Positions 1,627-18,727 of a stretch of 64,000 nucleotides of DNA are shown one piece after another. How positions within the stretch are numbered: position 1 is the stretch's first letter; the number at the start of each line of letters is the position of its first letter. The notes beneath the pieces were generated by a model. The model made no database searches and was not told the origin of the DNA. It saw nothing but the letters and a program-made list of their open reading frames with translations. The position numbers and the translations under genes are program-made. The stretch comes from Tolypothrix carrinoi HA7290-LM1 (GTDB taxonomy: Bacteria > Cyanobacteriota > Cyanobacteriia > Cyanobacteriales > Nostocaceae): contig JAHHIK010000002.1 of assembly GCA_019358935.1 (NCBI GenBank), positions 1 to 64,000 of the forward strand, written 5' to 3'.

Positions 1627-2158
1627 GAATAAATTATTTTTCTTTACACGCTCTTAACAAGAATGTGTTTTTTTCATGAACCTTAGATCCAAAGATAACA
1701 TACGTATGTATACTGCCATAAGAGAGGGTACGTAAGTATCTACCAAATACGTGTACCAGGCTGCTTGTTTTAGTAAAATCTACTTTGTGCGAATTGTAGC
1801 CAAGCAAACTTCTCAAAATTTTATACTAGGGCTAATTACTGCCATCCAACTGATGCCATCGCTGACCCTAAAGGCTTTGTGACGATTTTTGCATTTATTA
1901 TTGTCTAGCTGTTAATGGTAGTGATTTTGTCTAATAACTTCTGCTTCCAAGTATGCACCCAGGCATATCGATTCTGATAGCTTGTGTATGGCGATACTCC
2001 ACAGGTCGTGAATTCGCCGATGAGTATTTACCTAAGTCTAAAAAATATATTCGATATTTGGTCAAATCTTCCCGGATATATACGTAAGTACAAGAAAAGT
2101 GATTTATACAAAAGGTAAATACATCATTAATCAAATAGCCAAAGGAAATTTAGAGGAT

Positions 2159-2473
2159 ATGCACTTAAAACAACTAGACCAGAAAATCTCAGAGTCTTCG
2201 ATAATAGAGGCAAATACTGAACAAATTTCTTCGGATCTGGGTGGGGAGGCAGTCATTCTCAATCTCAAGACTGGAGTATATCACGGCTTGAATGAGGTGG
2301 GAGCGCTGATTTGGACTTTGATTCAGGAACCAAAAGCTGTGAAAGATATCAAGCCGATCCTTCTGCAAGAGTATGAAGTTGAACCTCAACAGTGCGATCG
2401 CGACCTGAAAGCATTGCTTGAAGACCTTTTGGCAGCAGGGCTAATCGATGTCAAAAATAATACGACTGTTTAA
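2159..2473 (+). CDS. lasso peptide B1 protein / stand-alone RiPP recognition element (PqqD family)
   Basis: PqqD-type sequence (SSDLGGEAVILNLKTGVYHGLNEVGALIW...EYEV...CDRDLKALLEDLLAAGLI). GAGGA RBS before ATG 2159. Overlaps the B2 gene. Confidence 0.92.
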   Translation: MHLKQLDQKISESSIIEANTEQISSDLGGEAVILNLKTGVYHGLNEVGALIWTLIQEPKAVKDIKPILLQEYEVEPQQCDRDLKALLEDLLAAGLIDVKNNTTV

Positions 2474-2897
2474 ATTTTTTCGGATGGGAGCAAGCGATCG
2501 CCAGCTTTTAATCATGACCTTAATTTTACTAGCAACCATCAGGCTAGGGTTGTGGTTAATGCCCTTTGGTACCCTTTTAAAACTGATAGCAAAAATTAGT
2601 CGGCAAAGCGATCGCCTACAAGTGACACAAGTTTCTGTCCGCAAGATTTCTTGGGCTGTAAAGGCAGTTAGCCGCTATATGCCTGGTGTAAAGTGTTTGG
2701 CTCGCGCTTTGACTACCCAAGTGCTAATGAATCGCAACGGTCACTCTTGCGAACTGCGGATCGGTGTTGCTAAAGGAGAAAAAGGAATTTTAGAAGCTCA
2801 CGCTTGGATAGAACATGAAGGACTAATTGTCATGGGTTATCTAACAGACCTTTCCCGCTTTATGCCACTGCCGTCTCTTGAAGGAGTGAAATTATGA
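2448..2897 (+). CDS. lasso peptide B2 leader peptidase (transglutaminase-like)
   Basis: KCLARAL Cys motif, LRIGV and AHAWIE His motif; lies between the RRE and cyclase genes. Confidence 0.92.
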   Translation: MSKIIRLFKFFRMGASDRQLLIMTLILLATIRLGLWLMPFGTLLKLIAKISRQSDRLQVTQVSVRKISWAVKAVSRYMPGVKCLARALTTQVLMNRNGHSCELRIGVAKGEKGILEAHAWIEHEGLIVMGYLTDLSRFMPLPSLEGVKL

Positions 2898-4915
2898 GTG
2901 GCATTATGGGTATTCACTATCTTGGCGATCGCCCTGTAGACCGGGAAGACCTGGGAATGATGGTGGAAACCTTGGCGCACCGAGGACCCGATGGTGCAGA
3001 TATCTGGATAGATGGGGCGATCGGCTTCGGGCATCGAATGCTGTGGACTACTCCTGAATCTTTGCTAGAAAAGTTACCTTTAGCTAACTCTACAGGCGAT
3101 TTGATTATTACCTCAGATGCTCGCATAGATAACCGCGATGAACTCATAAGTGTGTTACAATTAAATAACTGTGCATCTGAGAAAATTACGGATAGCCAGT
3201 TAATATTGGCTGCTTACGAAAAATGGGGCGAACAATGCCCAAAGCATCTTTTAGGTGATTTTGCCTTTGCAATTTGGGATAAACAAAAGCAGATACTATT
3301 CTGTGCTAGAGACCACATGGGTGTTAAGCCCTTCTACTATCACTTTCAAACAGGTCGAATTTTTGCTTTTGGCTCTGAAATTAAAGCTTTATTGTGTTTG
3401 CAAGAAATACCACGCCAACTCAATGAGGTGAAGGTAGGTGACTATCTGGCAGCAAACTTGCAAGATAAATCCAACACCTTTTACCAGGATATCTTGCGCC
3501 TTCCTCCGGCAAGTAGCCTAACGGTGAATGCTCAAGGTATACAAATACAGTCTTACTGGACGCTTGACCCCAAGCGGGAACTACGGCTGAATTCTGATGA
3601 AGAGTATGCCGAAGCATTGCGGGAAATCTTTGCGGAAGCTGTATGGTGTCGGTTGCGTAGCGCTTTTACCGTGGGTTCTCATCTCAGTGGTGGGTTGGAC
3701 TCTTCTTCTATCACTTGTATGGCACGGCAGTTGCTGATACAAGAAGGAAAAAATCGCTCATTGCACACCTTCTCAAATATCTTTGATGCTGTTCCCGAAA
3801 GTGACGAGCGCTCTTTTATTGAGGCTGTGATTGCCCAAGGTGACATGATTCCTCACTATGTCCACGCTGATGAAATGGGTCCTTTGTCAAACTTAGAGGA
3901 AATTTTCCGCTATCAGGATGAAGCCATTCCTGCACCTACACATTTCTTGGCTTGGGAATTGAACGATGCTGCTCAAAAAGTTGGTGTCCGAGTTGTCTTA
4001 GATGGCTTTGATGGCGATAATACGATATCGCACGGCGAGGGTTATTTCGCTGAACTGGCAAATAAAGGAGAATGGGCAACTTTCGCTCTTGAACTTGACG
4101 CTGTTTATGAACTCACTGGTGCGTCGCAAATGAGTATTCTGCGACAGTATGGTCTGACATCTTTGGAACAACTAGCACGCCAAGGGAAATGGGTTGCTTT
4201 TGTTAAACAGACCAATGAGTTCTTGAAACACTTTAAGGTTTCCCGGCGGCAGATTTTTCTGCGCCACGGCTTAAAACCTTTGCTTCCGCAGTTCGTACTA
4301 CAGATTTGGCGCTTTCTACGCGGACATAGTTTTAATACAAACCCTGACAAATCGATGATTAACCGCAGCTTTGCGAGGCGCATCGGTTTGCAGAAGCGTA
4401 TCGAGCCTTTTAAAGACTTTCTGTCAAGTTTCCCGCCCACAGAAAGGGAGCGACACTGGCGCGGTCTTAGTTCCGGCGTAATAACCCAAGCGCTAGAGAT
4501 ATCAGATCGCTATGCAGCAGCTTTTCAAGTCGAAGTTCGTCACCCGTTTATGGATAAACGCTTGCTGGAGTTTTGTCTGTCTCTGCCTCCTGAACAGAAA
4601 TTTAACAAAGGATGGTCGCGCTTAGTCATGCGCCGTGCCATGAAAAATGTTTTACCTGACCAAGTGCAGTGGCGTCTGGGCAAAGGCAATATGTCTCATA
4701 CTTTTCAGTACGGTCTACTGACACTAGATCGAAAAGTTTTAGATGAGGTAATGCTCAACCACTTGCAAACTGCGGAAACTTACGTAGACACAAATGTCCT
4801 GCGTGCAGCATATGAGCGATTAATATCTGCAAGCAAAGTTAATCTACAGGAAGAGCGTTTGCCAGTTTGGAAAGCAGCGATGTTGGCATTGTGGTTGCGT
4901 TACAGCAAGTTATAG
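2894..4915 (+). CDS. lasso peptide isopeptide-bond-forming cyclase (asparagine synthetase-like)
   Basis: AsnB-like motifs HRGPD, RDHMGVKP, SGGLDS and RHPFMD. The N-terminus is MSGI rather than MCGI, so the glutaminase nucleophile Cys is absent. ATGA overlap with B2. Confidence 0.93.
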   Translation: MSGIMGIHYLGDRPVDREDLGMMVETLAHRGPDGADIWIDGAIGFGHRMLWTTPESLLEKLPLANSTGDLIITSDARIDNRDELISVLQLNNCASEKITDSQLILAAYEKWGEQCPKHLLGDFAFAIWDKQKQILFCARDHMGVKPFYYHFQTGRIFAFGSEIKALLCLQEIPRQLNEVKVGDYLAANLQDKSNTFYQDILRLPPASSLTVNAQGIQIQSYWTLDPKRELRLNSDEEYAEALREIFAEAVWCRLRSAFTVGSHLSGGLDSSSITCMARQLLIQEGKNRSLHTFSNIFDAVPESDERSFIEAVIAQGDMIPHYVHADEMGPLSNLEEIFRYQDEAIPAPTHFLAWELNDAAQKVGVRVVLDGFDGDNTISHGEGYFAELANKGEWATFALELDAVYELTGASQMSILRQYGLTSLEQLARQGKWVAFVKQTNEFLKHFKVSRRQIFLRHGLKPLLPQFVLQIWRFLRGHSFNTNPDKSMINRSFARRIGLQKRIEPFKDFLSSFPPTERERHWRGLSSGVITQALEISDRYAAAFQVEVRHPFMDKRLLEFCLSLPPEQKFNKGWSRLVMRRAMKNVLPDQVQWRLGKGNMSHTFQYGLLTLDRKVLDEVMLNHLQTAETYVDTNVLRAAYERLISASKVNLQEERLPVWKAAMLALWLRYSKL

Positions 4916-4948
4916 AGAACAGTTCAGTATAAAAATTAGTAATATTTC

Positions 4949-4977
4949 TTGATTTATCACTATTTATATGTTAAAAT
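4949..4977 (+). promoter_or_regulatory. putative sigma70-type promoter for the precursor genes
   Basis: TTGATT (4949-4954), 17 nt spacer, TAAAAT (4972-4977), with an extended -10 TG at 4969-4970, ~70 nt upstream of the precursor ATG. Confidence 0.5.
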
Positions 4978-5044
4978 AGAGATGCCGTTACTCTAAGTTA
5001 AAATTAAGAGTTCGGGTTGACAACCAACAATCAGGAGTTTTCAA

Positions 5045-5257
5045 ATGAAGAAAAGCTACTCAGTACCACAACTCGTCAAACACGGAAGCGTCAGCAATAT
5101 CACGGCTTACTCTTTCGACAGTAAAGACGGCGACACATTTTTCGGTCAGACAAACGCAACAAACCAAAATGGTACTGGTTCACTGAATGCTTGCATAACT
5201 TTCAAAACAGGTCCCAAGAAAGGTGATTGCGTGAATCCTTCCGCGAAGGGTTTGTAA
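5045..5257 (+). CDS. lasso peptide precursor, copy 1 (70 aa)
   Basis: Leader has YxxPxL..G.....T (YSVPQLVKHGSVSNITA) with Thr at -2. Asp at predicted core positions 7 and 9. CAGGAG RBS. Confidence 0.9.
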   Translation: MKKSYSVPQLVKHGSVSNITAYSFDSKDGDTFFGQTNATNQNGTGSLNACITFKTGPKKGDCVNPSAKGL

Positions 5258-5425
5258 TAGAGAGCAAGGAATGCTGTAGTAGCCGCTACAGCAAGCTAAA
5301 TAAACAGCTTTTAAAGTCCTTGCAATCAATCTACCTTCGTTGTAGAAGCTAGAGCTTGCCTAGTAAAAGTTTATCTGAATCAAATTAACAGTTCGGGTTG
5401 ACAACCAACAATCAGGAGTTTTCAA

Positions 5426-5638
5426 ATGAAGAAAAGCTACTCAGTACCACAACTCGTCAAACACGGAAGCGTCAGCAATATCACGGCTTACTCTTTCGAC
5501 AGTAAAGACGGCGACACATTTTTCGGTCAGACAAACGCAACAAACCAAAATGGTACTGGTTCACTGAATGCTTGCATAACTTTCAAAACAGGTCCGAAGA
5601 AAGGTGATTGCGTGAATCCTTCCGCGAAGGGTTTGTAA
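5426..5638 (+). CDS. lasso peptide precursor, copy 2 (identical protein)
   Basis: Same translation as copy 1; one synonymous CCC/CCG difference. Confidence 0.9.
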   Translation: MKKSYSVPQLVKHGSVSNITAYSFDSKDGDTFFGQTNATNQNGTGSLNACITFKTGPKKGDCVNPSAKGL

Positions 5639-5745
5639 TAGAGAGCAAGGAATGCTGTAGTAGCCGCTACAGCAAGCTGAATAAACAGCTTTTAAAGTCC
5701 TTGCAATCAATCTACCTTCGTTGTAGAAGCTAGAGCTTGCCTAGT

Positions 5746-5776
5746 AAAGGGCTACGGGCATCCGTAGCCCTTTTTT
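5746..5776 (+). terminator. intrinsic terminator after the precursor genes
   Basis: Perfect stem AAAGGGCTACGG-GCAT-CCGTAGCCCTTT running into a T tract. Confidence 0.85.
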
Positions 5777-5854
5777 ATCCTTCCTTTTGAAGAAGGAAAG
5801 CAGGTTAACACAATCATAATAGCCAACTATAATTTTGTCCAAGGAGACTCAAAG

Positions 5855-6787
5855 GTGTTTGCTTATACTGCCTATAATCTCCGCATTCACTCTGAGTTTC
5901 CTTTTCCGGAACTCAGCAAGAGTGAAGTTTCACAAAAGCCGGATGTGGTGATTTCGCTGCGCTCCCTTAGCCAGTTAGAAACACAAACAGCTGATGGTGC
6001 TAACAAGCTAGTGGCATTTTTAGAGTTAGAAAACTCCACAGCGGGCAGGTTTTTGGTTGAGTCGGGACGCAAGATTGTTGTCGAACCAGACCCAGGAATT
6101 GATCAGGATTTGCTTCGTCCTTTTATTTTGGGACCAGCTTTTGCCGTGTTGCTGCGACAGCGATCGCATCTCGTCCTTCATGCCAGTAGCATTGCGATCG
6201 ATAATGGAGCAGTAGCGTTTTTGGGTCATTCAGGATGGGGTAAGTCAACCTTGGCGAATGCTTTTTACAATCAAGGGTATGGTTTACTTACAGACGATGT
6301 GATGGCGATAAAAGTTGAGAGTAACCCCCCGATTACTTTTCCCAGCTTTCCCCAAGTCAAACTATTACCAGATGCAGCGGCTTCTTTAGGATACGACTTT
6401 GAGAGATTAACTTCAATTCATGCTGGGGTAGCAAAACGGAATAATCGTCTTGACCAAGGATTTTCGCAAATTGCTTTACCAGTCAAGCGGATTTATGTGC
6501 TGGAAAATGTGGCAGCAACGCACAACGAAATACAGCCTCTGTCACCTCAAAATGCTCTGTTGGAACTGGTTGCCCACTCCCGCGCTACCGACTTACTAAC
6601 TACACCAGAGTTTGTTAGCTCTCATCTGCTTATGTGCGCTAATTTGGTGAAGAATGTATCGATATGTCGTTTAAAAAGAAAAAGTTCTTTAGCTGGATTA
6701 CCGGAGTTAGTGAAGCTAATAGAAGAAGATATTGCTCAAACAATATTTGATGAACACGATAATATTCAATTGTTTGCATCTGCCTAA
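5855..6787 (+). CDS. HPr kinase-like P-loop kinase (lasso-cluster kinase type)
   Basis: LHAS motif, Walker A GHSGWGKST and LLTDD. AAGGAG RBS before GTG. Confidence 0.85.
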   Translation: MFAYTAYNLRIHSEFPFPELSKSEVSQKPDVVISLRSLSQLETQTADGANKLVAFLELENSTAGRFLVESGRKIVVEPDPGIDQDLLRPFILGPAFAVLLRQRSHLVLHASSIAIDNGAVAFLGHSGWGKSTLANAFYNQGYGLLTDDVMAIKVESNPPITFPSFPQVKLLPDAAASLGYDFERLTSIHAGVAKRNNRLDQGFSQIALPVKRIYVLENVAATHNEIQPLSPQNALLELVAHSRATDLLTTPEFVSSHLLMCANLVKNVSICRLKRKSSLAGLPELVKLIEEDIAQTIFDEHDNIQLFASA

Positions 6788-6826
6788 GGATATATTTTCA
6801 AACTGAAAATAAAGGGATTTAAAATT

Positions 6827-8650
6827 TTGAATAGAAGATTAGGCAGAGCGATCGCTCGAATTTCTTATTTGCCAAAAACACTAGATTTAGTCTGGACTGC
6901 ATCTAAAAAATGGACGATCGCCTGGGCTATATTACTAGTTATTCAGGGACTAATGCCAGTTGCGATGGTCTACCTGACTCGCTCAGTGGTTGATGGTTTA
7001 GTAGCAGTCATGGGGGCTGGGGCGACTTGGCAGAGCGCTCAACCGATTATAATTCCAGCAGCAGCAATGGCTTGCGTCTTGTTGGTGGGAGGAAGCCTGC
7101 AAAACGTCATGGAATGGGTACGGACGGCTCAATCTGAATTTGTCCACGACCATATCACCACCTTGATTCATCAAAAGTCTGTAGCAGTAGATTATGCCTT
7201 TTATGAATCATCAGAATATTACGATCGCCTGAACCGAGCGCGTAGCGATGCCAGCGGTCAATCGCTTTCTCTGCTAGAAAATTTGGGTAATGGAATGCAA
7301 AACAGCATTACCCTTCTGGCAATGGCAGCAATATTACTTCCTTATGGTGCTTGGCTAGCAGTTGTAATATTAATCAGTGCGCTGCCGTCTTTATATATAA
7401 TCCTAAATCTTAATCGTTATTATCATCGTTGGTGGCAGCAGAACACAACAGAACGGCGACGCGTAGAATACTACGATGCACTCCTCACTAGCAGCCACAC
7501 TGCTGCGGAATTACGACTATTTAACTTGGGTTCTCAGTTCCAGTCTAATTATCTAAAATCACGCCATCGGCTGAGATCGGAATATTTACAAATAGTCAAA
7601 GTCCAAAGTTTAGGGCGCTTTGTTGCGATGATTTTGGGACTTTTCGTTTTTATCGCTCCTCTGAGTTGGATAGTTTGGCGAATCCTGCAAGGAAAGATGA
7701 CCCTTGGTGAACTTGCTCTGTTTTTCCAGGCATTTCAACAGAGTCGCGGCGTTATGAGTTCTTTGCTGGGTAATCTAGGACAAATCTATAAAAGTAGCTT
7801 ATTTATCAGTAATTTATTTGAATTTTTGGAGTTAAAACCGCAAATTGTCAGCCCAACTCAACCCCTAGCTATTCCCAAGCAATTGAAACAGGGAATTAGC
7901 TTTCAACAAGTTAGTTTTGGCTATCCGGGTAGCGATCGCCCTGTCTTAGAAAATTTTAATTTGACAATTCCGGCAGGCAAAATAGTTGCAATTGTCGGGG
8001 ATAACGGTGCAGGAAAGAGTACTTTAATCAAGCTACTTTGTCGTTTTTATGACCCGGAGTCTGGTTGCATTCAACTAGATGGAATCGATATTCGCGATTT
8101 ATCTGTTGCCGAATACCAGCGTTTAATTACAGTTTTGTTCCAGTTTCCTGTTTCTTACTACGTCACCGCTGCCGAAAACATTGCTTTGGGTGATTGGTCA
8201 GCAACTCCGAGCTTAGATGAGATTGAGTTGGCAGCTAAAAATGCTGGCATTCATGAGAAAATTGCTAGCTTACCTCAAGGTTACAACGCAATATTAGGCA
8301 AGTTGTTTCCTGAAGGTACAGAACTTAGCGGCGGACAATGGCAGCGTCTTGCTTTAGCAAGAGCATTTTTGCGACGTGCCGAAATTATTATTCTTGATGA
8401 ACCGACCAGTGCAATGGACCCTTGGGCAGAGTTTGATTGGTTAGAGCGATTCCGCACAATGGCAAATGGACGGACTGCGGTTGTAATTACTCACCGCTTC
8501 ACCTTGGCAATGCGGGCTGACATAATTCACGTCATGCGTGCTGGTGAGATTGTGGAATCAGGAAGCCATGATGAATTGCTGGCTCAGGGTGGTTTTTATG
8601 CCCAGTCTTGGAAAGAGCAAATGGAAGTTACTAGTAGTGTTCCTGTTTAA
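6827..8650 (+). CDS. ABC exporter, fused permease/ATP-binding protein
   Basis: N-terminal TM helices, GDNGAGKST, LSGGQWQR, ILDEPT and ITHR. No N-terminal C39 peptidase domain seen. Confidence 0.93.
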   Translation: MNRRLGRAIARISYLPKTLDLVWTASKKWTIAWAILLVIQGLMPVAMVYLTRSVVDGLVAVMGAGATWQSAQPIIIPAAAMACVLLVGGSLQNVMEWVRTAQSEFVHDHITTLIHQKSVAVDYAFYESSEYYDRLNRARSDASGQSLSLLENLGNGMQNSITLLAMAAILLPYGAWLAVVILISALPSLYIILNLNRYYHRWWQQNTTERRRVEYYDALLTSSHTAAELRLFNLGSQFQSNYLKSRHRLRSEYLQIVKVQSLGRFVAMILGLFVFIAPLSWIVWRILQGKMTLGELALFFQAFQQSRGVMSSLLGNLGQIYKSSLFISNLFEFLELKPQIVSPTQPLAIPKQLKQGISFQQVSFGYPGSDRPVLENFNLTIPAGKIVAIVGDNGAGKSTLIKLLCRFYDPESGCIQLDGIDIRDLSVAEYQRLITVLFQFPVSYYVTAAENIALGDWSATPSLDEIELAAKNAGIHEKIASLPQGYNAILGKLFPEGTELSGGQWQRLALARAFLRRAEIIILDEPTSAMDPWAEFDWLERFRTMANGRTAVVITHRFTLAMRADIIHVMRAGEIVESGSHDELLAQGGFYAQSWKEQMEVTSSVPV

Positions 8651-8652
8651 CT

Positions 8653-9876
8653 ATGCAAGAAATTCTCTGCCAAAACGAGGCACAACCGCCGCCAACCGTA
8701 TCATTACCTAAAATATACGGCATTCCTATCGACTCAGAAGCCTTGGCTAAGTACAGCCGTGAACTTCAGCTAAAGGAACCCACCGAGGCGCTTTTTGGGC
8801 TAGCTCAAGCTATTGCCAGCAGTCCCATCTGGGCAGAAATGCCTGGAAACATATTAATTGTTCGTCCCACTCCTCAACCTGCACTTTTTGTGTTGGGTTG
8901 CTTGGATGAAGCTGGTAGAGTGCGAATTGCTACAGAACTCCCGGATTTGAATCTGAACATAACTCGTCTGCGCTACGTCAGTTATCGTCAAGCGGAAGCG
9001 GATTGTGAGCGTTTAGCTAAACAATTAGTAGATCGCTTTGGTGATGAAATAAAGGAGTTTCACTTTACTGGGATTCCCCGTGGGGGGCTGATAGTTTTGG
9101 GAATGCTGGCTTACGCTTTGGGGCTAACTCCCGACCAATTAGAACCACCGCCATCGCCCGATGTGCCTTGGGTGGTGGTGGATGACTGTGTTTTTACTGG
9201 TTCTCGACTGAGCAACTTTTTGCAGTCTCATTCTCATGAGGCAGTAATATTTGCAGTGCTTTATTCTCATCCAGATTTGCGAAGAGCGATCGCATCTCGT
9301 GAACCGCGCGTTAAAGTATGTTTGAGCGCTCAAGATATTCATGATTATGCACCAGAAGACCTCGGTGAGAATTACCCAAACTGGCAAGCACACTGCCTCG
9401 CACAACTAGATGGAATCCGCTACTGGGTGGGGAAAACAGAAAATATCTGCTTTAGCTGGAATGAACCAGATCGCTTTGTTTGGAACCCTGTGACTGAAAG
9501 GATAGAGGGTTGCTGGCTGTTGATTCCTCCAGAAATCTGCTTGAAAAATCGACTCAAAGCTGCTGCTGAAGCTCCAATTATCCAGATTCAGCCGGAGAGT
9601 AAAGGACTCATTCAACCAGGGTTGCAAGTCATCTTTGGAGAGTATGAGGGGCAGATTGTGATTGGTAATTTGACAACTGGTGAAAGCTTTTGCTTGACTG
9701 GTGTAGCTGCTGATATTTGGCAAGCGATCGCTCAACATGGCGATGTGGAACAAGTTGTTATGTCACTATTAAGCAGCTACGACGTTGAAGAAGCGACACT
9801 CCGGTGTGATGTGGAGACATTTATAGATGAGTTGTACGCTCAGGGTTTGCTGGTTAAAAGCGATCGCTACTTCTGA
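8653..9876 (+). CDS. type I phosphoribosyltransferase-like protein with C-terminal PqqD/RRE domain
   Basis: TGIPRGGLIV (PPi-loop-like) and WVVVDDCVFTGS (PRPP-binding-loop-like). The last ~85 aa are PqqD-like (NLTTGESFCLTGVAADIW...YDVEEATLRCDVETFIDELYAQGLL). Confidence 0.8.
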   Translation: MQEILCQNEAQPPPTVSLPKIYGIPIDSEALAKYSRELQLKEPTEALFGLAQAIASSPIWAEMPGNILIVRPTPQPALFVLGCLDEAGRVRIATELPDLNLNITRLRYVSYRQAEADCERLAKQLVDRFGDEIKEFHFTGIPRGGLIVLGMLAYALGLTPDQLEPPPSPDVPWVVVDDCVFTGSRLSNFLQSHSHEAVIFAVLYSHPDLRRAIASREPRVKVCLSAQDIHDYAPEDLGENYPNWQAHCLAQLDGIRYWVGKTENICFSWNEPDRFVWNPVTERIEGCWLLIPPEICLKNRLKAAAEAPIIQIQPESKGLIQPGLQVIFGEYEGQIVIGNLTTGESFCLTGVAADIWQAIAQHGDVEQVVMSLLSSYDVEEATLRCDVETFIDELYAQGLLVKSDRYF

Positions 9877-9900
9877 AAAAGTGTGTAGCAATTTAGAAAT

Positions 9901-10037
9901 GCGTAGACGCTCCCGCCGCGTGCCTCTAGGAGAGCGGAGCGTCTTTGAAGGAGAAGAGAAGCGGTGAAGCAGCGCTGCGCTCCGGGTTTCCCTCGTGCCG
10001 GCTCTGCTGAACCCGAAGGGCTTGTCATCAGACATCG
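9901..10037. repeat. GC-rich cluster of nested small dispersed repeats
   Basis: GC-rich hairpin-forming modules in an AT-rich intergenic region, bounded by GCG...ATCG like a split HIP1 site; includes an AACCCGAAGGG module end. Confidence 0.5.
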
Positions 10038-10126
10038 TTTTAGTTCCTGATGTAACTGATTGACAAAGTAAAAGTAATCAAATAAACCTCAGCTTTGTCG
10101 GCAATTATTTATTGGAGGATGTAAAG

Positions 10127-10756
10127 ATGGTTACATACGAACAATTGAATGCACAGCAAGAAGTGAGCGAAAAAGACGCTTTCACCGAAGAACGGTATCG
10201 CCAGTTTTATCGCTTTTTTCCGGCAAATGCCCGTACTGTCCTGGATATAGGATGTAATACTGGCAGAGGTGGTCAAGTATTAAAAAGTCTTAATAAAAGT
10301 CTGCAAATTGCTGGCTTAGATTGCGTCAAAGACAGATTAGAGCGGTTGCCCAAGCAAGTATATGACCGAGGCATTTACGGTTTATCAACAGACATTCCTT
10401 GTGATGACCGTACATTCGATGTGGTTGTCGCTGGCGAATTTATTGAACACATATACCCGATGGATGTTGACAAAACCCTTGCAGAAATATTTCGGGTTTT
10501 GAAAGTTGGCGGCAGATTTTTACTTACAACCCCCAATCCTTTAGATATTAAGAAGAAAATGCGCGGTGAAAGTGTTTTAGATGACACCTGTCATGTTTCC
10601 CAGCATTTTCATGATGCTTTGAAGTTGAAGCTAAAAATGATGGGGTATTCAAGCATCAGAGTGTATGGCAGTGGTAAAGTTACACGTTATCTCGGCTACC
10701 ATTTTCCTTTGTTACATATTTATGGTAGCTATCTGGCAATAGGAGACAAAAAATAA
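10127..10756 (+). CDS. class I SAM-dependent methyltransferase
   Basis: VLDIGCNTG motif I, FDVVVAGEFIEH and RVLKVGG. GGAGG RBS before ATG 10127. Confidence 0.88.
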   Translation: MVTYEQLNAQQEVSEKDAFTEERYRQFYRFFPANARTVLDIGCNTGRGGQVLKSLNKSLQIAGLDCVKDRLERLPKQVYDRGIYGLSTDIPCDDRTFDVVVAGEFIEHIYPMDVDKTLAEIFRVLKVGGRFLLTTPNPLDIKKKMRGESVLDDTCHVSQHFHDALKLKLKMMGYSSIRVYGSGKVTRYLGYHFPLLHIYGSYLAIGDKK

Positions 10757-10777
10757 AATAATACTTGAATATCATGC

Positions 10778-10847
10778 AAGTAGGTGGACATAAGTATACA
10801 AAACCATTAAGTTGTAGTTGGCAACGTTTAATTATGCACACCTACTT
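10778..10847. repeat. small inverted-repeat element
   Basis: AAGTAGGTGGACATAA ... TTATGCACACCTACTT imperfect inverted ends. Confidence 0.45.
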
Positions 10848-10891
10848 ATTAATACAAGATAAAAATAAGATAAATTTAGTCCAACCCGCTG

Positions 10892-12007
10892 ATGAAAACC
10901 TATTCTAAACCTTACACTAACAACCATAAAATAAATGTTCGCCCCGAAGTTGAGCTACTTCTTTCTTGCGCTCGTACCCAGATAGATGATGAACGCGCTC
11001 AACGCATCAAATCTTTAGTTAAGGAAGATATAGACTGGCAATACCTCATAGAAATTGCATCTAGACACGGTTTAATTTCACTTTTGTATGCTAACATCAA
11101 TGCCATCACAAAAGAGGCTGTTCCTGAAGCTGCCTTCGCTCAAATCCGCAGCTTTTTCTACGCCAATGCTCAACGCAACTTTTTTCTAACAGAAGAACTT
11201 GTCAAAATTTTTCGTCTTGTACAAGAACACGGGATTTCATCTGTGCCATACAAAGGTCCAGTTTTAGCTGCCTCATTGTACGGTAATATAGCTTTGCGAC
11301 CGTCTGGTGATTTGGATATCGTGGTGCAACAGCCAGATGTTTTCAAGTTTAAGGATCTGCTGATTTCTCAGGGATATAGACCGAAAGATGATTTGACTGA
11401 AGCTGAGGAAATAGTTTTTCTCCAATCCAAAAGCGAACATGCTTATAGCTTGGTTCATGATGATAAACAGATTTTGATAGAAATTCATTGGAGAATTACA
11501 CCAGAATATACATCTCCAATTGAAACCAAACACTTTTGGGAAAAGCTTGAACCATTTTGCTTTGGTGGCACAACAATATCTAACCTAGCACTAGAAGATT
11601 GGCTACCAATCCTCTGCGTACATGCGTCTAGACATCGTTGGGAACGGCTAATTTGGCTTTGCGACATTGCTGAACTCATCCGAGTCTGCCCAGAAATTAA
11701 TTGGGAAAGAGTCATTCAGCAAGCTACTGTATTCGGCTGTAGGCGAGTGCTATTTCTAGGTCTTTTCTTAGCTAGTTACCTATTAGGAGCGAGGATTCCT
11801 ACAGAAGTTTTGCAGAGGATAAAAGCTGATACTGAAGTTAATTCTCTTGCTAGCGAGGTATGCGAGGAGCTTTTTCAAGATGTGAATGCTCACCAGAGAT
11901 TTTCCGGTAAAATGACTGTCTACCAGATCAGGGTAAGGGAACGCTTGCAAGACAAACTTCTGTATCTGGAATCTTTCTTAGGCTGGTTAATGACTAGGAA
12001 GAAATAA
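10892..12007 (+). CDS. nucleotidyltransferase family protein (NTP_transf_5 type, often lasso-associated)
   Basis: KGPVLAASLYG...RPSGDLD and IEIHW motifs; LCVHASRHRW...WLCDI. Confidence 0.85.
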   Translation: MKTYSKPYTNNHKINVRPEVELLLSCARTQIDDERAQRIKSLVKEDIDWQYLIEIASRHGLISLLYANINAITKEAVPEAAFAQIRSFFYANAQRNFFLTEELVKIFRLVQEHGISSVPYKGPVLAASLYGNIALRPSGDLDIVVQQPDVFKFKDLLISQGYRPKDDLTEAEEIVFLQSKSEHAYSLVHDDKQILIEIHWRITPEYTSPIETKHFWEKLEPFCFGGTTISNLALEDWLPILCVHASRHRWERLIWLCDIAELIRVCPEINWERVIQQATVFGCRRVLFLGLFLASYLLGARIPTEVLQRIKADTEVNSLASEVCEELFQDVNAHQRFSGKMTVYQIRVRERLQDKLLYLESFLGWLMTRKK

Positions 12008-12247: not shown

Positions 12248-13627
12248 TCAAAGCCGAGAATTTGTATCTGTAACCATGTATTTTCGTTGATGATGCGATC
12301 GCATAGTAATTTGCTGTTCATGCCATCGCAGACCGATCAAAGTGGCTACAGTTAGCATATATCCTGGCTCTTCCATCAGAGTAAAAATAAAACCGTTAAC
12401 CAGCACAGTGAGCATCATAAACTTGGAAAAGTCATCAACGCAGAGCCTACAAAAGACAATAAAGAAAATATATAGGTAAGCAGCCAAACCCAAGAATCCT
12501 GAATCTCCCCAAATACCAGCCCAGCCCCAAAAAGGAGAGAAAAGGCTGGAGTCGAGATAATAGCCACGCCATGTCGCCCAAACTGCTAAACTGGCAGGAT
12601 GAACGCTGGCTCCTAATGGTCCAAGTAGGTTCCAATAGTCTACTAACATCCAACCTCCTAGTCGTCCAATTGTATGACCAGGACCAAGACCAAGAAACCA
12701 ATTTAGTGATGATTGATAATAAGAAGGAATTATGCGAAATGGTCCTGTTTTCAAGACGGTTGCATCACCGTTAGGACCGTAAATTTCTGGTCTAATCCAG
12801 GTTTTGTATGCTTTAAAAGCTTCTAGATTTTCTATACACCAAAATAATATGTAACCAATTAAAATTCCGGCAATTACGTATTGTAAGGTTACTTTTATAT
12901 CTTTAACACGACTTAAAATTAATATTACCCAGGCTATTATCCATATTAAAAGTACCTGCTTGGCATCAGCGGCTAATAGTTGGAAAAAAGCAGTAAAAAC
13001 AACACAAGCCCTTATCCAAAGGGGAGCGGTTTTGGCGCTAAAAAAATAATAGAGGCTGAAGGACATGGAAACATAAGCGGAGACTACATGACCACCGCCG
13101 GATAGATAAAAAACTCCTTGAATATTATCCTCTTTGGTCAATCTGGGATTAGTAAGGACACCAAGGTCTAAAAGAAACTTTTGGGAAAGAGCTAAAAAGA
13201 TATGAATACTAGCAAAGCCGAGCATCCAAGCCCTAAATCGTTTCAGACTTTCTAAAGTAAAGGGCACACATATTATTGTTAAAAGAAATATATAAGGCTC
13301 GGCAATTAACATAAATCCTACGAATATATTAATTACCCCAGTTTGATTTAAAAGAGCGCTTGCTGTCATTACCACTAACATAATCATCAGACCAGACAAT
13401 AGTGTTTTTGCAATTGCTATCTGCTTTTTATCTTTAACTTTGGTTTTGAATATGACAATGCCACAAACAAGTGGAACTACTACAAAGTGAACAAAATTAA
13501 TGGGTGCAGGTACGCCTACAGCATTAATAATTCGAGGGAAAAAAGCAGTGACAAATGCTATTAGTATCAACGTGGAGTTTTTGACATATTCTCTCTTCTG
13601 TTTATAAATTCCTATTTCTGGATTCAT
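12248..13627 (-). CDS. polytopic membrane protein, O-antigen polymerase/ligase (Wzy/WaaL)-like
   Basis: More than 10 hydrophobic segments, GLGPG loop and DSGFLGLAAY; last gene of the glycosyltransferase operon. Confidence 0.65.
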   Translation of the reverse strand: MNPEIGIYKQKREYVKNSTLILIAFVTAFFPRIINAVGVPAPINFVHFVVVPLVCGIVIFKTKVKDKKQIAIAKTLLSGLMIMLVVMTASALLNQTGVINIFVGFMLIAEPYIFLLTIICVPFTLESLKRFRAWMLGFASIHIFLALSQKFLLDLGVLTNPRLTKEDNIQGVFYLSGGGHVVSAYVSMSFSLYYFFSAKTAPLWIRACVVFTAFFQLLAADAKQVLLIWIIAWVILILSRVKDIKVTLQYVIAGILIGYILFWCIENLEAFKAYKTWIRPEIYGPNGDATVLKTGPFRIIPSYYQSSLNWFLGLGPGHTIGRLGGWMLVDYWNLLGPLGASVHPASLAVWATWRGYYLDSSLFSPFWGWAGIWGDSGFLGLAAYLYIFFIVFCRLCVDDFSKFMMLTVLVNGFIFTLMEEPGYMLTVATLIGLRWHEQQITMRSHHQRKYMVTDTNSRL

Positions 13628-13683
13628 TTATTTTCCTCTGTTGGCAAATTTGCTATGACATTTAGTATTTTAGGTATAAATAA

Positions 13684-14862
13684 TTAATTTTTATGAGTAG
13701 AAGCAGCCTGAGCTATGGCATAAATCTCTATGAGTTTGTGATAATTTCTCTCGGCGGTGTATTTGGCTTCAAATTCGGCTCGTGCTTCTTGGCGCATTTG
13801 AGCGAGTTTTGGGCGGTTGGCTAGCATCCATTCCACTTTGGCTGCTAAATCCTCAGCATCACCTGGGCGGAAATGCAGCCCTGTACGACCAGAATCTACT
13901 AATTCGGCGATCGCTCCAATACTGGAAGCAATTACGGGTGTACCTTTAGCGAATGCTTCAACTGCTACACGCCCAAAGGTTTCATACCATTTTGAAGGAA
14001 AGACTAAAAACATTGCTTCTCCCATCAGGGCATGAACTTCAGGCATCGGTCTGCGTCCAAGCCATTCGACTTGCGGCATTTTATTTGTAGTTTTTGCTAC
14101 TTTTTCGGCTAAGGGACCATCGCCAACTATTTTCAGCGGTATCTGTAGGTTGAAATTTTCCCAAGCAGCAAGTAAGGTATCCAATCCCTTCTCTACGGAA
14201 AGTCTCCCAACATAAAGTGCATACCCGCCTTTACCTTCTCCCAAAACGGGTGCAGGATGGACAAAGTTAGGCTTAATGACGATTTTTTCTGCTGGCAAAC
14301 CACCTTCAATAAATTTCTGCCGCGCAAACTCGGTGAGGGCGATATATATATCTACCATTTCTGTCCAGGTACTCATGGCACGATGTACGGTAATCATAGT
14401 TGCGACACCGCCACTAGCAATTTGGCTTTCGCGATAGCAACCATGCAGCACTCCCGGATAGGGAATGAATTTTCCTAAACAGTTTTCACAGACTTGCCCA
14501 TCCCGGAAAAATAAAGCATTCGGGCAAAGCAAACGATAATTCCGTAAGGTTTGAACTACGGGTACTCCTAAAGCTTTAGCGGCGTAGTAAACCGAGGGAG
14601 AAATTAAAGGAAAGAAATTTTGCACATGAACGAGATCGTGAGCCTTTTCCTGAAGCTGCTGTTGAACTATTTTGTATGCTTCTGTTGACCAAATGGTTTT
14701 GAGAGCCATTTGTGCGGAACTTATAGTAGAAACGCGATCGTTGTTATCTTCATATACGCTGACTTGGTGTCCCATCTCGCGCAAAAGCCGTTCTTCTGAT
14801 TCTCGGGACTCGTCCTCGCCACCGCGAATTTGATAGTTGTTATGTATGCTTAAAATCTGCAT
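13684..14862 (-). CDS. glycosyltransferase family 4
   Basis: YVGRLSVEKG and ETFGRVAVEA (EX7E) motifs. Confidence 0.92.
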   Translation of the reverse strand: MQILSIHNNYQIRGGEDESRESEERLLREMGHQVSVYEDNNDRVSTISSAQMALKTIWSTEAYKIVQQQLQEKAHDLVHVQNFFPLISPSVYYAAKALGVPVVQTLRNYRLLCPNALFFRDGQVCENCLGKFIPYPGVLHGCYRESQIASGGVATMITVHRAMSTWTEMVDIYIALTEFARQKFIEGGLPAEKIVIKPNFVHPAPVLGEGKGGYALYVGRLSVEKGLDTLLAAWENFNLQIPLKIVGDGPLAEKVAKTTNKMPQVEWLGRRPMPEVHALMGEAMFLVFPSKWYETFGRVAVEAFAKGTPVIASSIGAIAELVDSGRTGLHFRPGDAEDLAAKVEWMLANRPKLAQMRQEARAEFEAKYTAERNYHKLIEIYAIAQAASTHKN

Positions 14863-14986
14863 TCAAATAAATCTCCTTTGGTGTCAAGCTCAGTCGTTAG
14901 GACATGTTTTCTGTGTTGGTTGTTTAGTATGCTGGGCTTTGCGAGCCTCGTACTTTGCGCTCTTTGCGCCGTTGCGCTAATCATCA

Positions 14987-16219
14987 CTACTGTTTAGAAA
15001 AGACTTGTTCATAAAGCTGAGTGATGACTTGCCCTTTATGCTCCCAGTCGTATACTTCCCTAACTCTTTTTTGCGCTGCTTGTGCCAAGCTGACTCGTAA
15101 TTCAGAATTGCTAGCTAGTTGCTGCATCGCTTCAGCTAAGTTTTGCACGGCTTGCTCTGGTTCGGGTGCCGGAACTTTGAAGCCTGTTTCTTGAGTAACT
15201 TGAGTCGCCGGTCCGCCTAAGTCAAGGCAAATCACTGGTCTACCAGCCGCCATCGCTTCTAAACAAACCCACCCGCCAGAGTCGTGCAAGCTGGGATGAA
15301 CTAAAGCATGGCACTCTGCGAGTTTTTTTAGGGTTTGTTCACGGGGTAGCAGTCCCCAGAAGCGTACTTGTTCGGTGATGCCTAATTCTTGAGCTAGAGC
15401 CTCCAAAGATTTGCGATCGGGTCCGTCGCCAATAATCCAGTATTCGGCGTTGGGGTGATTTAGCTGGGCAAAAGCCCGCAGTCCAAGATAAAAGCCTTTC
15501 CAATGCAACAGCCTACCAATAGAAATTAAGCGGAAGGGTTCCTGATTAGCTGGCAAGAGTTGAGCCAGAAAATCTAAATCGGATTTGGGGATACCAGCAA
15601 CACCGCAAATTTCGACTCGTTGACAACCCAACGCAAAAAGGCGATCGCTTGTTTCTTGAGTAGCGGCTAAAGCTACTACACAGCGTTGTGCTGTTAGCTG
15701 GACAAACAAGTCTTTTTCACCAAACCAACGGGCTAAATCTCGCAGTGTTTCATAAACTTTACCACGAGTGTTGAAGTCTTGCCAGAAGGTCTTGGGCGCA
15801 GATTCGCCGCCGCCTACCGGACCCCAAATAAAGGGCATGGGAAGTAATGCCAACAAACTTGGACCCCAGTGTTTGACATAGGTAACATGATGCGATATTT
15901 CAAAACCTATCTCGCGGTGGAGTGCTTTAGCGATAAAGTAGATACCTATTTGCCACAGATAGTAATGTAGCTGGACACCTCGCAGTCCTTTCTTCCACCA
16001 CCGCAGCCAAAGAGGCAGGTCGTAGTAAACAAAATGGAGCTTGGGGTTTGGATTTTTGGCTAATTCGGCTTCAATCGCCGGACGATTATCACACCGGGTG
16101 ATTACCCAAACTTCATGGTGTTTGGTCAGTTCCTTTGATATGTTCCAACCAATACCAGGGTCAGAACCTTTGCCAGGACTACACGCGTATGCAGAAACTA
16201 GAACTTTTAGGGATTTCAT
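14987..16219 (-). CDS. glycosyltransferase family 4
   Basis: IGRLLHWKG and PSLHDSGGWVCLEAMAAG. Confidence 0.92.
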   Translation of the reverse strand: MKSLKVLVSAYACSPGKGSDPGIGWNISKELTKHHEVWVITRCDNRPAIEAELAKNPNPKLHFVYYDLPLWLRWWKKGLRGVQLHYYLWQIGIYFIAKALHREIGFEISHHVTYVKHWGPSLLALLPMPFIWGPVGGGESAPKTFWQDFNTRGKVYETLRDLARWFGEKDLFVQLTAQRCVVALAATQETSDRLFALGCQRVEICGVAGIPKSDLDFLAQLLPANQEPFRLISIGRLLHWKGFYLGLRAFAQLNHPNAEYWIIGDGPDRKSLEALAQELGITEQVRFWGLLPREQTLKKLAECHALVHPSLHDSGGWVCLEAMAAGRPVICLDLGGPATQVTQETGFKVPAPEPEQAVQNLAEAMQQLASNSELRVSLAQAAQKRVREVYDWEHKGQVITQLYEQVFSKQ

Positions 16220-17346
16220 GCTGTTTTTCCATTTAAAACCTGTTCATAGACTGCTGCAATTTGTTCAGCAGTTTTTTCCCAAGTAAAATATTTCACTCTT
16301 TCTAAACCTTTTTCTCTTAGTGATTCTCGATAGTTAGAGTCCTGATGAATACGGCATACAGCAAGTGCGATCGCGCGATCGTCGGTTGGGTTAACTAAAA
16401 TGGCAGCATCACCAGCAACCTCTGGTAGAGAACTAACATTTGAAGTGATAACTGGTGTCCCGCAAGCCATTGCTTCTAGAATGGTCATGCCAAAGCCTTC
16501 GTAAAGCGAAGGAGCTACTAGGATATCCGCAGCGTTGTAAATTTTAACAAGGGTTGATTTATCTGGTTTCCCTAAATAAGTAACGCAATTTTCTAATTCG
16601 TGAGTCTGAATATATGTTTTTTGCTCGCTAGTAAAGTCTGCGCCCGTCTTGAGTAAATGTATAGAAATACCGTCATTTTTCAGAATTTGTAACGCTTTTA
16701 AAATAGTGAAAATATTTTTACGTGGATGATTAGATCCAACATTTAATAAGCAAATAGTCTCAGATGAAATGTTATTTTTTTGCCGATAGTTTAGGGCTTC
16801 TGCTATTGAAACCGGATGAAATAACGATTCAACTGCATTGGGAACAACAGTTAAATGTCTTGATTGTACATCCAGTATTGTTGTCACATCTTTTGCAGTA
16901 TGCTTAGAAACTGTAATAATATGGTCTGCTTGACAAATTCCTTTAACAGCAAATTTCCAAGCGGCTGTACTAATGAAAGGTAACCGGGCTTGATCGCTAA
17001 TATTTTCTGAATGTAAAAAATTAATTAAATCGTGGCAAGTGACAGCAAGAGGTTTACCAACATTTTTTAGCCAATAAGCTATATGACCATCACTATGGTC
17101 AATGACATGAAAGATATCTGCTTGACATTTTTGGACAGTTCGTGGATAGTGCCAATAGCGTTGGTAATATTTCCACAAACCATTAAATAAAGCATTGCCC
17201 TGACTGTTGGAAGAGCCAAAGTTAGGCACTAATTCTATAATTTCCCAATCTGGGCGAACGGTTTTTAAACCGCTTATCAAACCATCAGCATAAACATCCA
17301 TGCTGAAAGAGGCATTTAGTGCCCTACGGACAATTGCTATACGCAT
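16216..17346 (-). CDS. glycosyltransferase family 4
   Basis: [18 protein letters not shown] and PRKN motifs. Confidence 0.92.
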
Positions 17347-17473
17347 AATAAATATCCGTTTCCACTATTATTGTGATTTAAATATAAACCAGGTTTTTTA
17401 ATATAAATTGTGGTTAGAGAGATTTATTTTTGTTTAAAAACCCGGTTTTTTCTGAGTACCTAGTTAAATAATT

Positions 17474-18727
17474 CTAGGAAATTGTGCTAGCTGGCATTTC
17501 AGCTGCTCGCTGTTTTGATGTACTGACACGTTTTTTTGTATTGTTTATTTTTTCTATCAGTTGCAGAAATGCGTTTAACTCACAGTTCATGTCCTGTCCA
17601 GAAAAGACTTCTTTGGCGTGCTGGCTGTATATTTTTCTGGTATCAGAGTCAGCTAACACACGCATTGCTTCAGCCAAAGCTTCAGAATTACCACAAGGAT
17701 AAACTAGTCCGTTATATCGATGTTGCACTGTATCGCTGTAGCCCCAGTTACCACAGCGATCGCTTAAAATTGCCGGACAACCAGCCGCCATCGCTTCCGA
17801 GACTACCAGTGGATGGGGGTCGCTGTAGGAGCTAGAAACAAAAACATCCATTGCTGCGTAGTACAATGGCAGTTTGCTTTGGTTAACAAAACCGATATTT
17901 AAAACCTCGCCATTCATTGTGGCGAGACGCTTGTTAATTTCTGCTTCTAACGCACCCCCACCAATCATAATTCCCCGGATACGTTGGTCTTTTTGATGCG
18001 CTTTGGCAATTGCTTCGATGAATTCAAATGGATTCTTGCGCTCAATGTACTTGCCTGTAAAGTTATACAGTACAGTGTCTGAGTTCCAACAAAGTTGCTG
18101 GCGAATTTGTTGAATCTCCTCTTGATTATGGGCGATAGTTTGCTCATATCTATCCCGATCCACAGGATAACAACCACGTACCATTTTTTCGTAGGGAACC
18201 CCGTAGTGACGTAGGTATATTGCATTATGGTCACCACTGGAAATCCAATGGTCTGCTAACCCATACATCCACGGGTAAAGTACGGGTAAGATAATTTTAC
18301 GCAGTTGGCTGTAGTGAGCATCTGTGATGATGGTTGCGTCGTTTTGCATGATGATAGGAATTCCACGCAACTTACATAACAGCACCGTCAGACGATAGGA
18401 AAGCGTGTAAAAACTTGGCAAAAATACAGCATCAAAGTTGTCGCGTGTCAAGCGCGAAATTAGTGCGGGATTTAGTAAGTTTTTAGCTGTTTTTGTGGCA
18501 ACTTTTCCAGTTAATGTTTTTAGAAATTCATGCTCGTAACCACTCAACAAATCCACATCCCACGCTTGCGAACTACCAAGATGGCGATCGCCTCCGACTT
18601 GATTCTCATTGCAAAGGTAGAAGGCTGTTACGGAAACTCCAGGCTGCTCATTCAGCTTGCGCCATAATGGTGCGTGGTGTTGCGTGGGGTGGGTGAATAC
18701 CACGCCTAAACGAAAATTCTCTTTCAT
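17474..18727 (-). CDS. glycosyltransferase family 4
   Basis: GKYIERKNP and DPHPLVVSEAMAAG. Confidence 0.9.
   Translation of the reverse strand: MKENFRLGVVFTHPTQHHAPLWRKLNEQPGVSVTAFYLCNENQVGGDRHLGSSQAWDVDLLSGYEHEFLKTLTGKVATKTAKNLLNPALISRLTRDNFDAVFLPSFYTLSYRLTVLLCKLRGIPIIMQNDATIITDAHYSQLRKIILPVLYPWMYGLADHWISSGDHNAIYLRHYGVPYEKMVRGCYPVDRDRYEQTIAHNQEEIQQIRQQLCWNSDTVLYNFTGKYIERKNPFEFIEAIAKAHQKDQRIRGIMIGGGALEAEINKRLATMNGEVLNIGFVNQSKLPLYYAAMDVFVSSSYSDPHPLVVSEAMAAGCPAILSDRCGNWGYSDTVQHRYNGLVYPCGNSEALAEAMRVLADSDTRKIYSQHAKEVFSGQDMNCELNAFLQLIEKINNTKKRVSTSKQRAAEMPASTIS

Follow-up and report, generated by a model that had tools for sequence, protein, structure and literature searches.

A phosphoribosyltransferase-fold protein fused to a RiPP recognition element in kinase-type lasso peptide clusters, a candidate leader-guided tailoring enzyme

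The DNA analysed here (the window) is a stretch of 64,000 nucleotides (nt) from Tolypothrix carrinoi HA7290-LM1, positions 1 to 64,000 of contig JAHHIK010000002.1, and it carries a lasso peptide cluster. One gene of this cluster, at 8653-9876, encodes a protein of 407 amino acids (aa) that joins a type I phosphoribosyltransferase (PRTase) fold to a recognition element (RRE) of RiPPs, peptides made by ribosomes and modified after translation. A single copy of the gene was present in the source genome. Its close spacing to the preceding ABC exporter gene, pointed out in an initial annotation made from the sequence alone, agreed with the sequence: the exporter stop codon TAA lies at 8648-8650 and is followed by 'ct' and the ATG at 8653, leaving a gap of 2 nt. 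The gene and its parts are as follows.

8653-9876, plus strand: PRTase-fold/RRE fusion gene, 407 aa (open reading frame and translation, Pfam, AlphaFold2 model, family scan)
8653-8964, plus strand: N-terminal alpha/beta domain, residues 1-104 (domain folded alone, structure search)
8965-9540, plus strand: type I PRTase-fold domain, residues ~105-296 (VIA-align, Foldseek, PF00156)
9067-9087, plus strand: TGIPRGG, pyrophosphate-loop motif, residues 139-145 (family conservation; aligns with 'lPRGG' of TT1426)
9172-9207, plus strand: VVVDDCVFTGSR, loop motif binding phosphoribosyl pyrophosphate (PRPP), residues 174-185 (conservation; aligns with 'VDDGvATGa' of TT1426)
9604-9861, plus strand: C-terminal RRE, residues ~318-403 (fold, profile, identity to B1)

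The central domain was assigned by profile, motif and structure. Pribosyltran (PF00156) matched the protein at E 1.1e-7 (31.7 bits, cut-off 26.3), and the two PRTase hallmarks on which the initial annotation had relied, TGIPRGG and VVVDDCVFTGS (residues 174-184, nt 9172-9204), were found at 9067 and 9172. The AlphaFold2 model of the whole protein was built on 60 relatives and reached a predicted local distance difference test (pLDDT) of 94.9 and a predicted template modelling score of 0.91. When residues ~105-296 of the model were compared with solved structures by VIA-align, the best match was 4z1o (Z 13.0, root-mean-square deviation (rmsd) 2.4, 121 aligned residues), followed among PRTases by 5vog (Z 12.8) and 1wd5 (Z 11.3), with more than 30 PRTase entries at Z ≥ 8. 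Foldseek retrieved E. coli XGPRT at E 1e-5 and pointed to the same two families, PRTase and lasso RRE, as VIA-align. The call of a type I PRTase fold is therefore backed by Z scores of 11-13, a Pfam match above cut-off and both motifs. The closest solved PRTase by family profile was the uncharacterised TT1426 of Thermus thermophilus (1wd5, E 0.0019), with which both motifs aligned. PRTase-CE (PF24390) scored 20.1 bits, below its cut-off of 27, which indicates a distant likeness only. No NCBIfam model exceeded its cut-off, the lasso_PqqD models reaching 39.1 against 80, and the NCBIfam library therefore holds no dedicated model for the family.

The C-terminal part is an RRE of the lasso type. 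Residues ~318-403 superimposed on TbiB1 (5v1u) with Z 13.8 and rmsd 1.5 over 84 of 84 TbiB1 residues, and on TfuB1 (6jx3) with Z 13.2. PqqD (PF05402) matched residues 336-400 at E 4.4e-13 (49.8 bits, cut-off 23.4), and the family profile matched TbiB1 at E 1.1e-15, with lasso B1 profile matches spanning E 1e-15 to 1.5e-7. The proposed resemblance to the cluster's own stand-alone B1 was borne out by 32% identity over 87 aa (E 7e-10). The N-terminal ~105 aa, left without assignment in the initial annotation, stayed so. Folded alone (pLDDT 84.9), this part gave a best Z of 7.2; none of 48,161 chains reached Z ≥ 8 and unrelated proteins tied for the top places, so the domain was given no fold family. 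An ESM Atlas search with the N-terminal and PRTase parts yielded leads that were all under 0.9, and the N-terminal domain was less conserved than the other parts of the protein. The three-part architecture of N-terminal domain, PRTase fold and lasso-type RRE is confirmed, far beyond chance.

Relatives were numerous. A scan of 1.84 billion representatives returned 1240 proteins at E ≤ 0.001 and 351 clusters at E ≤ 1e-30, and a word-indexed search returned 634 proteins at E ≤ 0.001. Nearly all of the 150 listed relatives were 290-430 residues long, with the match covering most of the query. The fusion of N-terminal, PRTase and RRE parts is fixed in the family. A Rosetta-stone search, itself weak evidence, found no longer fusion forms among longer proteins, and the shorter proteins included only seven short pieces of the family, mostly on small contigs. 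The closest relatives came from Hassallia, Tolypothrix, Calothrix, Westiellopsis, Rhizonema, Brasilonema and Nostoc, which places the window among heterocystous cyanobacteria, and the family as a whole was spread over cyanobacteria, proteobacteria and many soil and sediment metagenomes. Among genomes the gene is rare and patchy: in evenly drawn genomes beyond the centre genomes, it was present in 0 of 400 from the phylum of Billgrantia and in 1 of 400 from the phylum of the window, the one being of the same genus. Database names for the relatives were only 'PqqD family peptide modification chaperone', 'PqqD family protein', 'Coenzyme PQQ synthesis protein D' and 'hypothetical protein', and precomputed Pfam placed PF00156 on 10 of the 120 relatives listed. 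Because the informative records are named for the PqqD chaperone only, genome-mining tools will overlook the enzyme part.

Conservation was assessed in an alignment of 60 of the 150 listed representatives, all near full length and 31-58% identical to the query. PqqD was detected in 57 of them when they were scanned one by one against Pfam. Eight columns were invariant (P142, G144, G145, D177, D178, G183, L203 and W269), and six of these eight residues are positions of the PRGG and DD..G motifs. R143, V176, C179 and R185 were conserved in at least 90% of the members, so that the acidic pair and the following T/S-G phosphate loop, DD..(T/S)G.R, were invariant or at least 90% conserved throughout. 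The concentration of invariant columns in PRGG and DD..G means that no part of the protein is more constrained than the residues which in PRTases serve to bind pyrophosphate and PRPP. W269, E271, P272, W288, P292 and C296 make up another conserved set, which lies outside the PRPP site and could form an acceptor site. The conserved blocks HLYSHP.LR, CF.WNEPD..WNP and GW..PPE.CLKNR had no counterpart in the PRTases compared.

The genes from 2099 to 12007, all on the plus strand, make up the lasso peptide cluster. Besides the fusion gene they are as follows.

2099-2473, plus strand: B1, stand-alone RRE (PqqD E 2.8e-19; lasso_PqqD_Bac 73.3 bits, just below the cut-off of 80)
2448-2897, plus strand: B2, leader peptidase (NF033537 lasso_biosyn_B2, 113.6 bits, cut-off 33)
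2894-4915, plus strand: C, lasso cyclase (NF033535 lass_lactam_cya, 1062 bits, cut-off 525)
5045-5257, plus strand: precursor copy 1, 70 aa (NF033528 lasso_cyano, 33.5 bits, cut-off 33; YxxPxLxxxGxxxxxT leader, core Asp9)
5426-5638, plus strand: precursor copy 2, identical protein (same translation as copy 1)
5855-6787, plus strand: K, HPr-kinase-like peptide kinase (Hpr_kinase_C and HprK_rel_A weak, all below cut-off)
6827-8650, plus strand: D, ABC exporter (ABC_tran E 9e-32, ABC_membrane)
10112-10756, plus strand: class I S-adenosylmethionine-dependent methyltransferase (Methyltransf_11 E 9e-15)
10892-12007, plus strand: N, NTP_transf_5 nucleotidyltransferase-like protein (PF14907 E 5e-62)

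The H...GxSGxGKS...DD motif of K was conserved in 67 aligned K sequences. The two precursor copies form a tandem repeat within 5001-5681 (300 nt, 99% identity, spacing 381 nt); the precursor is also duplicated in a Tolypothrix relative (L001), and a Nostoc locus (L008) carries three diverged copies. Upstream of B1, positions 1-2099 are ~2 kb of low GC content (36-38%) with no long open reading frame. Beyond the cluster, the minus strand at 12248-19961 encodes five consecutive glycosyltransferases (four of GT4 type and one GT2) and a 459-aa open reading frame with no Pfam match. This polysaccharide locus is separate and marks where the lasso cluster ends.

Gene context was examined in loci of two kinds. 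Eleven came from named genomes (10 cyanobacteria and Billgrantia ethanolica), and their neighbouring genes were sought by tblastn with the window proteins together with iterated profiles. Another 80 were metagenome loci found via a 21-row alignment that used the PRTase motifs themselves; motif conservation in these loci therefore proves nothing, and only their gene context was used. Neighbouring genes were called on six-frame open reading frames by iterated profiles from the window proteins, and Pfam spot checks agreed in L011, L047 and L061. The initial annotation had asked where homologues reside, and they were not mostly outside RiPP clusters: a cyclase gene was present in all 20 metagenome loci of at least 8 kb and in 9 of the 11 genome loci. 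The genome loci also carried K (9), ABC (11) and NTP_transf_5 (10), the two that had neither C nor K being short contigs. The methyltransferase gene, found in one genome locus (L010) and in 0 of the 80 metagenome loci, is an occasional member of this cluster type.

Of the 47 metagenome loci with at least 900 nt of room, 40 had C on the same strand no more than 1.2 kb upstream, and of the 48 with at least 700 nt of room, 36 had K no more than 1.2 kb downstream. Seventy of the 80 loci held one or more of C, K and B2, and the remaining ten were contigs shorter than 5 kb. The 20 long loci had, next to their 20 cyclases, K in 17, B2 in 14, stand-alone B1 in 10, ABC in 7, NTP_transf_5 in 5 and the methyltransferase in none. 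These counts define a conserved module of C, precursor, PRTase-RRE gene and K. The strongest contextual fact is that the family travels with the HPrK-like kinase, an association overlooked in the initial annotation. The cyanobacterial order, in which K and ABC precede the PRTase-RRE gene, is a local variant.

The frequency of NTP_transf_5 bears on the explanation that the domain is a small-molecule PRTase, which would combine a free base with PRPP into a nucleotide-like co-substrate that another cluster enzyme (for example NTP_transf_5) uses, with the RRE only as a tether to the biosynthetic complex. The best structural matches are indeed purine PRTases, and the invariant W269 could stack on a planar acceptor. 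Against this, NTP_transf_5 occurs in only 5 of the 20 long metagenome loci, and it is difficult to see why an enzyme acting on free bases should have a fixed RRE fusion. In 6-oxopurine PRTases, moreover, an Asp three residues past the acidic pair serves as the base; the family consensus at this position is hydrophobic, not Asp. We consider this explanation highly improbable.

The arrangement of the module varied among loci. In Billgrantia ethanolica (L011 1-12272 and L012), C, precursor, PRTase-RRE gene and K lie between truA and trpF, and B1, B2, ABC and NTP_transf_5 lie ~8 kb away, past asd, fimV and truA. In three cyanobacteria, second lasso clusters with K and without a PRTase-RRE gene (L004 1-3700, L006 12000-21206 and L009 11800-17700) stand beside the homologous cluster; those of L006 and L009 also carry NTP_transf_5, and one precursor of these second clusters ends in Ser and is paeninodin-like. 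The kinase is therefore not dependent on the PRTase-RRE gene. In L061, a variant protein of 347 aa comprises the N-terminal and PRTase parts, ends before the RRE and is placed after a stand-alone B1 and before K, which indicates that the enzyme-like part is a unit of its own and not a mere linker on a chaperone. The gene order of this 4-kb contig (376-3988) is B2, an ATP-grasp-like gene with weak Pfam matches only, B1, the 347-aa protein and the kinase, with no cyclase visible.

Further arrangements were seen in single loci or small groups. In one sub-group (L033 11321-17968, L048 11237-15109 and L067 1799-3952), a giant SdrD_B/CarboxypepD_reg repeat protein (>1200-2200 aa) follows the PRTase-RRE gene, and in L048, L063 and L064 B2 and the kinase lie beyond the giant repeat protein. 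L047 (370-11188) contains two tandem cyclase genes with a precursor between them and then the PRTase-RRE gene; no HPrK-like kinase was found on its 14 kb, and downstream are two open reading frames with no Pfam match and a Hanks-type Ser/Thr kinase. L058 (5201-9869) and L059 have the order ABC, a 226-aa open reading frame containing B2, C, PRTase-RRE gene and K. No stand-alone B1 was detected in these two by a custom profile on a crude list of open reading frames, on which nothing is built, and the fused RRE may be their sole RRE.

Precursor open reading frames with a canonical lasso leader were found between C and the PRTase-RRE gene in most loci. Across 32 aligned precursors, the leader residues Tyr, Pro, Leu, Gly and Thr (YxxPxLxxxGxxxxxT, Thr at -2) and one core Asp (position 9 or 8) were invariant or nearly so. 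Core position 1 was highly variable across the family (Y, A, V, I, F, T, N or G). Sub-groups of precursors had conserved Ser/Thr residues of their own; the peptides are Gly/Ser-rich, and no conclusion was drawn from this. The core encoded in the window comprises 49 residues after Thr-2/Ala-1, unusually long for a lasso peptide, with Tyr first, Asp at position 9, two Cys and Leu last.

The initial annotation had suggested a structure prediction with the leader peptide; such a prediction was run on the 407-aa protein and the precursor, each with its alignment. The co-fold scored 0.47 against 0.01 for the best control and was graded as weak support: of 157 solved complexes 116 attained this mark, as did 2 of 215 mismatched pairs, but at scores of 0.60 or less only 18 of the 157 did so, along with both passing mismatches. 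Contacts agreed between runs by at least 53%, and the pLDDT of the partner was at least 43. Since RRE-leader complexes have already been solved, the pass may stem from likeness to these.

The reading that we tentatively prefer, at somewhat less than an even chance, is that the gene product is a leader-guided tailoring enzyme of a kinase-type lasso pathway that uses PRPP or a similar 5-phosphoribosyl donor. The donor, catalysis, the acceptor and the order of steps we infer as follows. The C-terminal RRE would bind the YxxPxLxxxGxxxxxT leader of the precursor, as lasso B1 proteins do, and would thereby position the core peptide at the trimmed type I PRTase-fold domain. With its PRGG pyrophosphate loop and its DD..TGxR ribose-phosphate loop, this domain would bind the 5-phosphoribosyl donor, in the simplest case PRPP with Mg2+. 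Ribose-5-phosphate would then be moved to a nucleophile of the core, probably while the precursor is still linear and in cooperation with the HPr-kinase-like kinase. The acceptor could be a Ser/Thr hydroxyl beyond the ring or a phosphate installed by the kinase. In its boldest form, which we hold to be possible and rather doubtful, the protein would be the first PRPP-dependent PRTase to act on a ribosomal peptide, attaching ribose-5-phosphate under leader guidance either to a residue of the core or to a phosphoserine or phosphothreonine that the kinase has produced (a phosphodiester-linked sugar phosphate), and its products would be a new and phylogenetically widespread class of phosphoribosylated lasso peptides. 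In clusters with NTP_transf_5, the sugar phosphate could be extended to a nucleotide-like appendage.

Several observations weigh against such a transfer. PF00156 at E ≤ 0.01 was reached by only 17 of the 60 aligned members and PRTase-CE by 18 of the 60 (best 8e-5), low match rates that account for the poor annotation of the family. The distance from PRGG to DD is ~10 profile positions, compared with 70 residues in TT1426, so that ~60 residues fewer are present; in the window protein 32 residues separate G145 from D177, and the model predicts no strand there. In type I PRTases, the stretch between the PRGG and DD loops forms a two-strand hairpin and a mobile catalytic loop. With this stretch apparently missing, the domain may not catalyse the classical transfer, or another part may replace the loop, and this shortening between the motifs is the main structural argument against the classical reaction. 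PurR (1o57) and PAP39 (2c4k), PRTase folds that bind PRPP or nucleotides and perform no transfer, were among the structural matches. The kinase was absent from 3 of the 20 long metagenome loci. Finally, no core residue besides the ring Asp was conserved in the 32 aligned precursors, and the sequence therefore names no acceptor.

The apparent lack of this stretch also favours a serious rival, namely that the protein is a non-catalytic adaptor: a second RRE chaperone for the kinase or another tailoring step, whose PRTase fold is a docking or ligand-sensing module (for PRPP, a nucleotide or (p)ppGpp) that gates maturation. Conservation of the PRPP site indicates ligand binding, not turnover, and the structural matches include, next to the PRPP-sensing repressor PurR and the non-catalytic PAP39, the ppGpp-bound PRTase-like 5vog (Z 12.8). 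The kinase adjoins the family in 36 of 48 loci with room, and the available text on the lasso kinase BsfK reports that the stand-alone B1 protein BsfB1 speeds it up (PMC10368454). On this account, the proposal in the initial annotation that a second RRE beside B1 recruits the precursor for tailoring is plausible and not compelling, because an RRE adaptor for the kinase fits equally well. Other observations are at odds with an adaptor. K clusters with no PRTase-RRE gene adjoin in the same genomes (L004, L006 and L009), so the kinase can do without it; the extra conserved set outside the PRPP site (W269, E271, P272, W288 and C296) is more than a sensor would seem to need; and L061 keeps the PRTase part and drops the RRE, the opposite of what is expected for a pure RRE adaptor. 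We judge this rival unlikely, and serious all the same.

Association with a kinase and a pair of phosphate-binding loops would also suit other chemistry on an already modified peptide, such as trimming or exchange of groups (phosphate, pyrophosphate or nucleotidyl) that the kinase or NTP_transf_5 had added, with the peptide phosphates bound at the pyrophosphate and phosphate sites. We know of no precedent for such trimming or exchange in a PRTase fold. In PRTases the DD pair binds ribose and Mg, and its invariance argues for a ribose-phosphate ligand; the three long loci with no kinase likewise speak against this chemistry. In its favour are the conserved sites themselves, which are the pyrophosphate- and phosphate-binding loops, the co-occurrence with the kinase, the apparent lack of the classical mobile loop, and reports, in the accessible parts of two papers, that related lasso kinases put up to four phosphates on a single Ser (PMC9266682, PMC8498205). 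Taken together, this explanation is improbable.

The leader-guided transfer that we prefer would, if the enzyme is active, be a new reaction for both RiPP and PRTase biochemistry, PRPP-to-peptide transfer, and would allow a charged sugar phosphate to be attached to peptides in a leader-programmable manner. If the protein is non-catalytic, it would clearly exemplify the recruitment of a metabolite-binding fold for the control of peptide maturation. In either case, a leader-binding domain is hard-wired to a PRTase fold and conserved in this form across hundreds of sequence clusters. Lasso peptides are stable, bioactive and heavily mined, and about a dozen tailoring reactions are known for them. 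In the literature searched, an RRE-fused protein of this catalytic fold is new to RiPPs.

The full-text literature searched contained nothing that links a PRTase fold to lasso peptides or RREs; the original paeninodin and SyanK papers lay outside its coverage, and the SyanK cluster may show a homologue. The accessible text of the literature searched, lasso reviews included, described neither this family nor a PRPP-dependent modification of peptides, and the terms 'ribosyl' and 'PRPP' are both absent from the accessible part of a review of interlocked peptides from 2026 (PMC13352647). This is in line with the statement in the initial annotation that no lasso tailoring enzyme of the kind had been characterised. 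The known systems of the same cluster type are those of paeninodin (PadeK), ThcoK, SyanK, BsfK/BsfB1 and pseudomycoidin (PsmK, PsmN), with A, B1, B2, C, D and an HPr-kinase-like K, and often the NTP_transf_5 protein N. According to the available sections of the papers on these kinases, it is the linear precursor, with its leader still attached, that is tailored, and the kinase can be helped by B1; no PRTase-like gene is mentioned in those sections (PMC8498205, PMC9266682, PMC10368454). The substrates of PadeK, ThcoK and SyanK are described in the same accessible text as carrying a C-terminal Ser (PMC8498205, PMC9266682), whereas cores of the present family do not end in Ser and that of the window ends in Leu.

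The C-terminal ~85 residues share their fold with the lasso B1 proteins TbiB1 (5v1u/5v1v), TfuB1 (6jx3) and PbaB1 (9x90), and the cognate precursors share the YxxPxL...T leader motif. Unlike these discrete B1 proteins, the RRE described here is the tail of a 407-aa protein with two more domains, and it coexists with a separate B1 in the window cluster and in 10 of the 20 long metagenome loci. With the 6-oxopurine PRTases (E. coli XGPRT 1a95/4jit and S. solfataricus HGXPRT 4z1o) and TT1426, the protein shares the core fold and the PRGG and acidic-pair/TG loops. It differs from them in having no purine-type hood and in the addition of the N-terminal domain, the RRE and a ~60-residue conserved C-terminal extension (CF.WNEPD, PPE.CLKNR); those PRTases act on bases, whereas the presumed acceptor here is a peptide. 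The combination of an RRE with a catalytic domain is itself known from TigE (8vpo), ThcOx (5lq4) and the heterocyclase 4v1t, all three of which were retrieved as structural matches of the RRE part. None of them has a catalytic domain related to the PRTase fold. ADP-ribosyltransferases take their ribose from NAD+, whereas PRPP would be the donor for the PRTase-RRE protein. The nearest published case is minviopeptin, which, as far as the accessible text goes, is an ADP-ribosylated RiPP of another class (triceptide) made by an enzyme of another family, the ADP-ribosyltransferase MicD, and which has in common with the pathway proposed here a ribose-phosphate-type decoration as an intrinsic biosynthetic step (PMC12912966).

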